Shown: piece by piece, positions 35,658 through 38,244 of the stretch
Layout of the letters: each line of letters begins with the position of its first letter
Position numbering within the stretch: position 1 is the stretch's first letter
Assembly: GCA_033119305.1 (NCBI GenBank)
Contig: VSWD01000008.1
Coordinates: 62,196,347-62,260,346, forward strand
Direction: 5' to 3'
DNA from: Pinctada imbricata
Taxonomy: Eukaryota
DNA: 64,000 bases
Notes under the pieces: model-generated
The model's input: the letters and a program-made list of their open reading frames with translations, nothing else
Databases searched by the model: none
What the model was told of the DNA's origin: nothing
Translations under genes and position numbers: made by a program

Positions 35658-38244
35658 AGGTGCGTTCGGAGTTTTTCCAATGGTAAAAATTGAGTTACCA
35701 TTGGCACCAATGGTAACATAGCAACAACGGTAACCATCAAACAACGAACGGGTTTTTGGTAATGTTAAATACGCTACCATAGGCAACCAATGGTTTACCA
35801 TTGGTGCATGTCTACGGCGCCAATCGGTACCAATGGCAACCGTTGGTACCAATGTTGACGGTGATGGTACAAACATTAAAGTATTTTCCCATTTTTAGCT
35901 CAACTGGTCAAAGACCAGTCGAGCTTATGCGATCACCCTGTGTCCGGCGTCCGGTGTCCGGCGTACGTCCGTCCGTCCGTCTGTCAAACTTTTCTGGTGA
36001 ATGCGAATCCTCTGAATCTACAAATGGCTGGCGAAGATGGTAAATGGTAAGAAATTAATTCTTTTTGCATTATGTTGGGCCTATGGTCTAGTTGTGCACC
36101 TGATATTTTGTTTTGACCCTGACCGCCAGGGTCTTGGAAAATGGGTGTGGTCATTTTCTCCTATATAACTCTATGTAATCTTGTGAACACCATTTCTCAG
36201 AAACTATAATTGATAGGGAATCATGTCTTTTTGCAATTTATTGAGTCTATGTCTAGTTGTGCACCTGTTATTTTGTTTTGGCCCCTGACCCCCAGGGTCT
36301 TGGAAAATGGGTGTGGTCATTTTCTTCTATGTAACTTTATGTAATCATGTGAACACCAAACCTCAGAAACTATAATTGATAGGGAAATAATTCTTTTTGC
36401 AATTTATTGAGCCTATGGTCTAGTTATGCACCTGATATTTTGTTTTGGACCCTGACCCCCAGGGTCTTGGAAAATGTGTGTGGTCATTTTCTCCTATATA
36501 ACTCTATGTAATCTTGTGAACACCAAATCTCAGAAACTATAATTGATAGGGAATTATTTCTTTTTGCAATAAAATGGGTTTGTGGTCTTAATGTGCACCT
36601 GATATTTTGTTTGAGTTCCTGACCCCCAGGGTCTTGGAAAATGGGTGTGGTCATTTCCTTCTATATACATGTAACCCTATATTATCTTGTGAATTTAAAT
36701 TCTCAAAAAGTAAAAATGATAGAGGTTAAATTCTTTTTGAATTATAATAGGTCTTTGGTGTAGTTGTGCACCTGATATTTTGTTTTGGCCTCTGACCCCC
36801 AGGGTCTTGGAAAATGGGTGTGGTCATTTTCTCCTATATAACTCTATGTAATCTTGTGAACACCATTTCTCAGAAACTATAATTGATAAGGAATGAATTC
36901 TTTTTGCAATTTATTGAGCCTATGGTCTAGTTGTGCACCTGATATTTTGTTTTTGCCCCTGACCCCCAGGGTTTTGGAAAATGGGTGTGGTCATTTTCTC
37001 CTATATAACTCTATGTAATCTTGTGAACACCAAATCTCAGAAACTATAATTGATAGGGAATGAATTCTTTTTGTAATAAAATTGGTTTGTTGTCTAGTCG
37101 TGCACCTAATATTTTGTTGGAGTTCCTGACCTCGAGGGTCCTGGAAAATGGGTGTGGTCTTCTATTTAACCCTATGTAATCTTGTGAACATAAATTCTCA
37201 AAAAGTAAAAATGATATATAGAGAATAAATTCTTTTTTTGCATTATGATACGTCGTTGATCTAGTTATGCACCTGATATTTTGTTGGGCCCTGACCCCTC
37301 CTTTAATGTAATCTTGTGAACACCAATTCTCAGAAAGTATAATTGATAGAAAAATTCTTTTTGCATTAAACATGTTAAAATTGGGTTGTGGTTTTGTTTT
37401 GCATCTGATACTATTTTTCAGCCCGTGACCCTTGGGGTCTTTGAAAATGGGTGTTCCACTTACATGGATGCTTTCAAACAACCAGGAGAGCTTCAGTCTC
37501 GTCAGAGACTTCTAGTTTCCAACTACAATAATGAATCATCCTATCAGTAATAGGCAAGACTTAGTAATTTGTAAATTTTTTCCGGATCATGAAATAAGCC
37601 CCAACCTCTCCACATGTCTGATTATCTTTGATGTATTTGAAATATAAACACTTTTTGTGTCATAAACTGAGTACCAAAAGGAACGAACTTAGAATTTTAA
37701 TAGAATGTTAATACATCTTATTACCAAAATATTACGCTGAATGATTTATCTTCAACATTGGAAAATTAAAGAAAAAAATAATCCAACTAAATCGAATCTT
37801 AACAATTAATCTGTTTATTTTATGCCCCGTGATCAGAGATTAGGGGACATATTGTATTTGTTCTATCTGTCTGTCCGCAAAAACTTTGTCCACAACTTTT
37901 GAATGGTAAGTAATAGGGCTATCAAATTTCACACGTGTATTCCTTGTGACTAGAACTTTCAATGGATACCATTTTTTTGATTTTATGAACTTGACATTGG
38001 AGTTTGGTTCCCTCCCCTTTTGCAAATCTCAATGGAAAAAAACTTTCGTTATGCTATCTTTCGTCGCCATCTTGAAAACGAAGCTCGGAGCGTTGGCAAA
38101 GTTACCCACACTCTAGATCGTCTGGAAGATTGGCTGCCGACGAGGACTACCAATGGTACACAATGGTACCATTGGCACACCAATGGCATAATATGTTGCC
38201 AATCGGTACCAATGTGAAAACTCCGAACGCACCTACAGTAAAAG
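35658..38244. mobile_element. 2.6-kb TIR-bounded composite element carrying a satellite. TIRs AGGTGCGTTCGGAGTTTT… (35658-) and its reverse complement (…38227-38244), both followed by arrays of CCAATGGTACCATTGG-type palindromes. The left arm holds (CCGT)n/(TGTC)n at 35942-35990. The core is a ~166-bp satellite of about 8.5 units (36040-37450). The right arm holds a hairpin + TGTC + tail module (37815-38000) of the Helentron/pearl-like family.
   Basis: Reverse-complement comparison of both termini; direct periodicity of the core; similarity of 37815-37960 to 13465-13625. Confidence 0.6.
36040..37450. repeat. Satellite array of ~166-bp units, about 8.5 copies (…ctatggtctagttgtgcacctgatattttgttttggcccctgacccccagggtcttggaaaatgggtgtggtcattttctcctatataactctatgtaatcttgtgaacaccaaatctcagaaactataattgatagggaat…).
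   Basis: Direct. gtctagttgt recurs at 36086, 36251, 36418 and so on. Confidence 0.9.

Follow-up and report, generated by a model that had tools for sequence, protein, structure and literature searches.

Organization of the locus

We analyzed a 64,000-bp window of the Pinctada imbricata genome (GenBank assembly GCA_033119305.1, contig VSWD01000008.1, positions 62,196,347 to 62,260,346, forward strand), in which a 2,577-bp segment (35658–38234 of the window) is framed by perfect 18-bp terminal inverted repeats (TIRs) and holds a satellite-like tandem array in its core. The host context comprises a fragment of a long interspersed nuclear element (zf-RVT), spermine-oxidase-like exons, and a rhodanese and DSPc dual-specificity phosphatase gene (10718–11785, 14628–15356, 26170–26290, 50111–50659, and 61665–62108); the segment sits in a non-coding stretch between the spermine-oxidase-like and phosphatase genes. 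Its parts are those expected if a TIR element had been invaded by two elements of the HINE type, here named HINE-1 and HINE-2. From left to right they are:

35656–35658, no strand: left flanking TAA, a candidate 3-bp target-site duplication (TSD) if the element belongs to PIF/Harbinger; 35658 is also base 1 of the 18-bp inverted match
35658–35675, plus strand: left TIR, AGGTGCGTTCGGAGTTTT
35676–35870, no strand: left subterminal region, filled with CCAATGGTA/TACCATTGG-type sites
35897–35925, plus strand: HINE-1 left flank (LF), a putative 5′ subterminal inverted repeat (subTIR) and its adjacent complementary inverted repeat (IR), after a T-run
35940–35985, plus strand: HINE-1 (GTCC/GTCY)n, the microsatellite-like end of the LF
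35986–36052, plus strand: HINE-1 variable spacer of 65 bp, from the microsatellite to the first repeat
36053–37454, plus strand: HINE-1 central tandem repeats of ~167 bp, eight and a partial one
37455–37520, plus strand: HINE-1 right flank (RF), with a candidate 3′ subTIR and a palindrome
37521–37817, no strand: AT-rich stretch, presumably part of the TIR-element backbone
37818–38000, plus strand: HINE-2, the 5′ portion of another, distinct HINE
38001–38216, no strand: right arm of the TIR element
38217–38234, minus strand: right TIR, reverse complement of the left

Termini and Subterminal Motifs of the TIR Element

The two TIRs are the only exact matches to AGGTGCGTTCGGAGTTTT in the window, against 0.02 expected by chance, and no third site was found anywhere in the 64 kb when up to three mismatches were allowed. 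The arms are similar in inverted orientation over 35 nt (83%), and this similarity breaks off sharply at the outer edges. An earlier note on this DNA had described the termini as reverse complements, which they are, and had placed the right end of the element at 38244; the inverted match ends 10 bp further in, at 38234. A 23-bp tandem repeat (AAATTCAAGGTTTAGATGGAACT, 2.9 copies, 38241–38306) begins 7 bp outside the right TIR and is probably the reason for the former endpoint. Just left of the element, at 35595–35630, lies a 40-nt block (…ATTCCGCTGTTNTCACTGTTGGGGA…) of which a second copy, 85% identical and inverted, is found 1.8 kb upstream (33786–33825, minus strand); it is the end of a repeat.

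Both subterminal regions are densely filled with a quasi-palindromic 9-mer, CCAATGGTA/TACCATTGG, which occurs in both orientations on the left. With up to two mismatches to CCAATGGTA, we counted ~11 separate sites in the left arm and ~6 in the right arm, the latter concentrated in 38148–38216, with a spacing of mostly 9–12 bp. The two bins covering the arms have the highest density of such sites in the window (10 per 250 bp each vs. a mean of 0.56). Exact copies of CCAATGG number six in 35677–35836 and three in 38150–38186, for a window total of 20 where 7.8 are expected. The figure of about ten CCAATGG-type palindromes per arm given previously therefore suits the left arm and is too high for the right one. 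A direct 17-bp match, GCCAATCGGTACCAATG, connects 35819–35835 with 38198–38214, and a single degenerate copy of the TIR-proximal motif is present at 37748–37765, inside the AT-rich segment, which has no significant relatives elsewhere in the window.

The element lacks coding capacity and gave no Pfam, Rfam, or tRNA signal, so that a coding element on the one hand, and an origin from a tRNA, a short interspersed nuclear element, or a structured RNA on the other, were rejected. With its sharp, perfect TIRs and mirrored quasi-palindromic clusters, the segment looks like a non-coding, nonautonomous class II element.

A Probable HINE with Its Own Tandem Array

Bivalve genomes harbor several nonautonomous Helentrons, among them Cg_HINE of Crassostrea gigas and the earlier described pearl, DTC84, and MgE elements (PMC7492417). 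In Cg_HINE, the LF combines a 5′ subTIR with a complementary IR and ends in a GTCY-type microsatellite; it is followed by a variable segment of 10–500 bp, the central repeats, and a 60-bp RF carrying a 3′ subTIR and a palindrome (PMC7492417).

The same order of modules surrounds the core array of the Pinctada segment. On the plus strand, a T-run is followed by a hairpin, a GTCY run, the 65-bp spacer, the repeats, and a RF of ~60 bp with a palindrome. The hairpin, AGCTCAACTGGTC-aaa-GACCAGTCGAGCT (−9.6 kcal/mol, z = −4.9, none of 200 shuffles folding as well), has the form of a 5′ subTIR with a complementary IR within 1–12 bp. The LF ends, as in HINEs, in a short eroded microsatellite of the GTCY/GTCC/GTCK kind, within which the pattern GTCYGTCYGTC is matched at 35963–35985, perfectly so at 35967–35985. 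The spacer falls within the 10–500-bp range and leads to a short array whose 167-bp unit falls within that of ~150–180 bp. To the right of the array, AACCAGGAGAGCT (37480–37492) precedes the palindrome AGTCTC-gtca-GAGACT (37495–37510, z = −2.4). The hairpin and GTCC/GTCY module directly upstream of the array was absent from the earlier note.

TRF detected a period of 167 bp with 7.5 copies (36051–37298), and mapping of the consensus delimited eight units and a partial ninth (36053–37454), in agreement with the ~8.5 units of ~166 bp first reported. Six units are 93–98% identical to the consensus, two represent a variant at 78–80%, another is shortened by an internal deletion of 46 bp, and the array ends in a partial unit.

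In its sequence organization, the inner unit 35897–37520 looks like a complete HINE that brings its own 167-bp array. It resembles Cg_HINE, pearl, DTC84, and MgE in module order, in the shortness of the array (8.5 units), and in a monomer related to the CL1 repeat described below; it differs from them in that its flanks match none of the compared elements, its subTIR pairs at 10 of 12 positions, and its 3′ palindrome is short. The host also differs, not being C. gigas. HINEs of C. gigas are reported to prefer T-rich or TT sites, to generate no TSD, and to be often inserted in other transposable elements, mostly DNA transposons (PMC7492417). The 5′ junction of HINE-1 is preceded by cccattttt, and the sequence at its 3′ region is tctagttt.

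The earlier note had taken the array to be a satellite acquired or generated by the TIR element, which would then offer a mechanism for satellite dispersal. Neither idea is sustained: the array carries its own termini in HINE order, and the known vehicle of such arrays is a Helentron-type element. Of the proposed DNA-transposon-type nonautonomous vehicle, the transposon part agrees with the sharp 18-bp TIRs and mirrored motif clusters, and the part concerning a satellite vehicle is not supported, given the separate termini of the array.

Relationship of the Monomer to Oyster HINE Repeats

We aligned the 167-bp consensus with the CL1 (Cg170/HindIII-type) HINE monomers of C. gigas, taken from the supplement of PMC7492417. 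Its reverse complement is collinear with them over the full unit, with a score of 46 versus 25.4 ± 3.8, and none of 300 shuffles reached 46. The blocks in common are AGTTTCTGAGA, AAGATTAC, GACC..CCCATT, and CCC(T)GGGGGTCA. The same shuffle test against three other arrays of the window (158-bp AGGTCA-rich and HINE-2-type repeats) was negative, which bears out the previous view that the array is unrelated to the AGGTCA-rich monomers. By this alignment, the relationship of the monomer to the Cg170/HindIII-type HINE repeat of C. gigas is significant, though distant.

HINE-2 and Other HINEs in the Window

HINE-2 consists of a hairpin (37821–37851), a TGTC run (~37860–37877), and about one monomer, without a right flank. 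The hairpin and TGTC run correspond to the hairpin-TGTC-tail module noticed before inside the right arm (37821–37877). Four relatives are found in the window: one at 13462–13613 (72% identity over 152 nt) and three at 17387–17452, 17626–17709, and 18505–18563 (73–78% identity). In the first of these, (GTCY)n comes directly after a textbook hairpin (TATGCCCCC...GGGGGCATA, z = −6.7). None of the four is near a CCAATGG cluster or a TIR. To judge from this resemblance, the module is the LF and about one monomer of another HINE family, truncated at its 3′ end.

On the minus strand, the stretch from 45235 to 44100 is a complete HINE belonging to a third family; it comprises a hairpin, (GTCY)n, a 158-bp array, and the palindrome TACCGGCAGTCATGACTGCCGGTA and lacks TIR arms. 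A T-run precedes all three hairpin-led HINE 5′ junctions in the window, in keeping with insertion at TT/T-rich targets. As the HINE-2 relatives and the third-family HINE have no TIR arms, it is the HINE that recurs, in this genome as in the oyster, as the carrier of short satellite-like arrays.

With these elements in view, the outer inverted repeats may themselves be compared with Helentron or HINE subTIRs, in which case the entire 2.6 kb would be one large HINE. HINEs do carry subterminal inverted repeats of 11–12 bp, and the interior is HINE-like. However, no complementary IR follows the left outer repeat and no palindrome the right one (z = +0.3 for both flanks), on which grounds we dismissed the outer TIRs as subTIRs; nothing corresponding to the CCAATGG arms is present in the window's other HINEs, and the true HINE modules lie further in. 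We consider one large HINE very improbable.

The window is rich in other short tandem arrays. A long 22-bp satellite (ACAGTATCATCAATACACCATC; ~100 copies, extreme GC skew of −0.6) occupies 42686–42915 and 45228–47890 and is apparently split by an insert of ~2.3 kb that holds the complete minus-strand HINE (44100–45235). The hairpin of this HINE directly abuts the 22-bp array, and TACTGTAAT is present at both of its edges. At 24513–25710, a 40-bp unit is repeated 26 times and contains an ATGCC...GGCAT hairpin resembling those of HINE LFs; another hairpin and GTCY run follow the array units at 25640–25710. The array may have arisen by tandem amplification of a HINE 5′ module. Two more arrays have a higher-order structure: at 54242–55329, a 45-bp unit within a 322-bp higher-order repeat whose copies are 97% identical, and at 410–1004, a 46-bp unit with higher-order periods of 94 and 186 bp.

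Possible Superfamily of the TIR Element

PIF/Harbinger elements have TIRs of 14–25 bp that follow a G(N)5GTT rule and a TSD of TAA or TTA (PMC2213677), and they occur in bivalves together with abundant miniature inverted-repeat transposable elements. The start of the Pinctada TIR, (A)GGTGCGTTCGG, matches GGGKGYGTTTG, the PIF/Harbinger TIR consensus of Medicago families, at 9 of 11 bases. AGGTGCGTT reads N(N)5GTT, with A replacing G; read from 35659, the terminus is G(N)4GTT. The 3-bp flanks, TAA on the left and TAC on the right (38234–38236), agree at two of three bases. Compared with the Medicago MtPH elements (PMC2213677) and Harbinger3N_DR, the Pinctada element shares an 18-bp TIR within the 14–25-bp range, a left TAA, a terminus close to GGGKGYGTTTG and G(N)5GTT, and a repeated 9-bp subterminal motif; some MtPH elements also hold internal tandem repeats (PMC2213677). 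It differs in having A as its first base instead of G (or else G(N)4GTT) and TAC as its right flank.

The Myb-like accessory protein of Harbinger3_DR recognizes a subterminal motif of 9 bp. The CCAATGGTA sites, spaced by ~10 bp, offer a good analogy to that motif, and the former suggestion that the CCAATGG motifs are transposase-binding subterminal repeats remains reasonable insofar as their sequence makes them candidates for protein binding. No autonomous partner that shares the termini and codes for a DDE transposase as well as a Myb/SANT-like protein was found within the window. We infer PIF/Harbinger to be the leading assignment for the backbone, at somewhat less than even odds.

Assignment to hAT was rejected: the 8-bp flanks, ACGACATA and ACAGTAAA, match at five of eight positions, and the termini are AGGTG, not YARNG. 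If the ends are moved 2 bp, they read TAAGG/TAGGT with an indel, and the flanks agree at three of eight positions.

Searches for Further Copies

The viral, metagenome, prokaryote, and Logan/ENA contig collections that we scanned hold almost no DNA of the host species. The host spermine-oxidase exon illustrates this: its best public match, on a 7.9-kb contig (ENA ERZ26168041), is 89% identical in amino acids and 79% in nucleotides, compared with 51% for Dreissena and 53% for Lingula, and beyond the exon this contig shows just two short matches of ~73% to the 52.6-kb region of the window; a second related contig likewise has little but the exon in common with it. The 18-mer TIR had no match in viral contigs, and the TIR combined with its first motif had none in metagenome contigs; in prokaryotic genome contigs the TIR had 11 single matches, all without motif context, against ~17 expected by chance from the size of the database. 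The satellite core had no match in viral or metagenome contigs, and three single matches of a shorter satellite 18-mer in viral contigs were judged to be chance. Likewise, no further copy of the HINE-1 array was found in the window or in the scans of metagenome and viral contigs. At the protein level, neither the left-arm open reading frame nor a 2,417-aa query joining every open segment from arms, flanks, and monomers (E ≤ 10) had a match in Logan/ENA contigs. No papers were retrieved with the TIR, motif, satellite, or hairpin strings, and no matches were found in the supplements of bivalve transposable element libraries. Given how little host DNA these collections hold, the absence of a second TIR copy says little.

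These results bear on the possibility that the element is not a transposon at all. The arms could be a local inverted structure, for instance an ancient inverted duplication or a palindromic region bound by protein, that lies by chance on both sides of HINE insertions. The single copy in 64 kb with none in the searched collections, the lack of a clean TSD, and the arms themselves, which beyond their first 35 nt have motifs in common and no collinear homology, would all fit such a structure. Yet perfect 18-bp ends, sharp boundaries, and mirrored motif arrays are classic class II anatomy, and collections in which even a host exon finds a best protein match of just 89% are a poor place to look for copies. 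We regard a local inverted structure as quite improbable.

Probable Nested Insertions into the TIR Element

We read the locus, with a probability of roughly 65%, as a TIR element, possibly of the PIF/Harbinger superfamily, invaded by two nested HINEs. The backbone of ~0.77 kb (35658–35896, 37521–37817, and 38001–38234) would be a non-coding class II TIR element, and its 9-bp clusters of the CCAATGGTA type, about one helical turn apart, would be likely sites for the transposase or, by analogy with Harbinger3_DR, for an accessory protein. The complete HINE-1 (~35897–37520, ~1.62 kb) would have inserted into this backbone with its own 167-bp array, as would the 3′-truncated HINE-2 (0.18 kb), which belongs to another HINE family. 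The two HINEs together would represent ~70% of the 2,577 bp. Since HINEs are the recurring array carriers in the window, dispersal of the satellite would take a known route, Helentron rolling-circle transposition. In principle, the TIR element might also co-mobilize the array.

Several observations weigh against this reading. There is no clean TSD of the kind that the earlier note had suggested looking for at the element edges, whether on a 3-bp model (TAA vs. TAC) or on an 8-bp one (five of eight positions). The TIR element is known from one copy, and no HINE-free copy of the backbone has been seen. Within HINE-1, the candidate subTIR pairing of 10/12 is equaled in 155 of 500 shuffles and is not significant alone; a direct match to the LF IR is reached or exceeded by 11 of 500 shuffles. 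The RF palindrome is just 6 bp long, and the RF feature is rightly positioned and statistically weak. The ends of HINE-1, notably the 3′ end, are approximate. Finally, the Repbase C. gigas consensus DNA4-4_CGi apparently holds the flanks of CL7 HINEs internally, from which composites may exist at the level of a family.

This last point leads to a different account of the Pinctada segment, a composite mobile family in which the TIR element and its internal HINE array form a family-wide unit moved by cut-and-paste. The TIRs are still perfect over 18 bp despite the 2.6-kb length, CL7 HINE flanks apparently map within DNA4-4_CGi, and array-carrying TIR elements are known: Medicago MtPH-A6-4, with 60-bp repeats, Xstir/Xmix, miDNA4, and Tetris. 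If so, a cut-and-paste transposon would move a Helentron-borne array, a single array family could disperse by two unrelated modes of transposition, and the length of the array would differ from copy to copy. However, the array has complete HINE termini of its own and is accompanied by an unrelated second HINE fragment, so that repeated hits on a passive target fit better than designed cargo, and no second copy was found in the viral, metagenome, or Logan/ENA scans. We consider a composite family unlikely and infer that the HINEs inserted here, at this one locus, and do not belong to a family-wide structure.

The segment resembles Xmix/Xstir, miDNA4, Tetris, and SGM (PMC9659126) in having a tandem array framed by inverted termini; the repeats of those elements belong to or derive from the element, whereas here the array has separate, Helentron-type termini and resembles an insertion. 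A foldback or Tetris-like carrier was rejected: the collinear similarity of the arms ends after ~35 nt, and the array is unrelated to the arms and flanked by HINE modules. Both TIR elements with tandem arrays and HINE arrays nested in DNA transposons are already documented.

Implications

On the reading that we favor, in which HINE-type elements invaded the TIR transposon, one of them with its own array, this locus is an ordinary case of nested insertion and not a new satellite vehicle. What is possibly new is limited to the backbone, which would be an uncharacterized nonautonomous TIR family with dense 9-bp CCAATGGTA subterminal sites. Recognition of HINEs guards against misreading such a nested insertion as a new TIR-based vehicle for satellites. 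The locus would exemplify a pattern documented in the oyster, in which the short, scattered satellite-like arrays of bivalves are the central repeats of Helentron-type elements, often located inside transposons.

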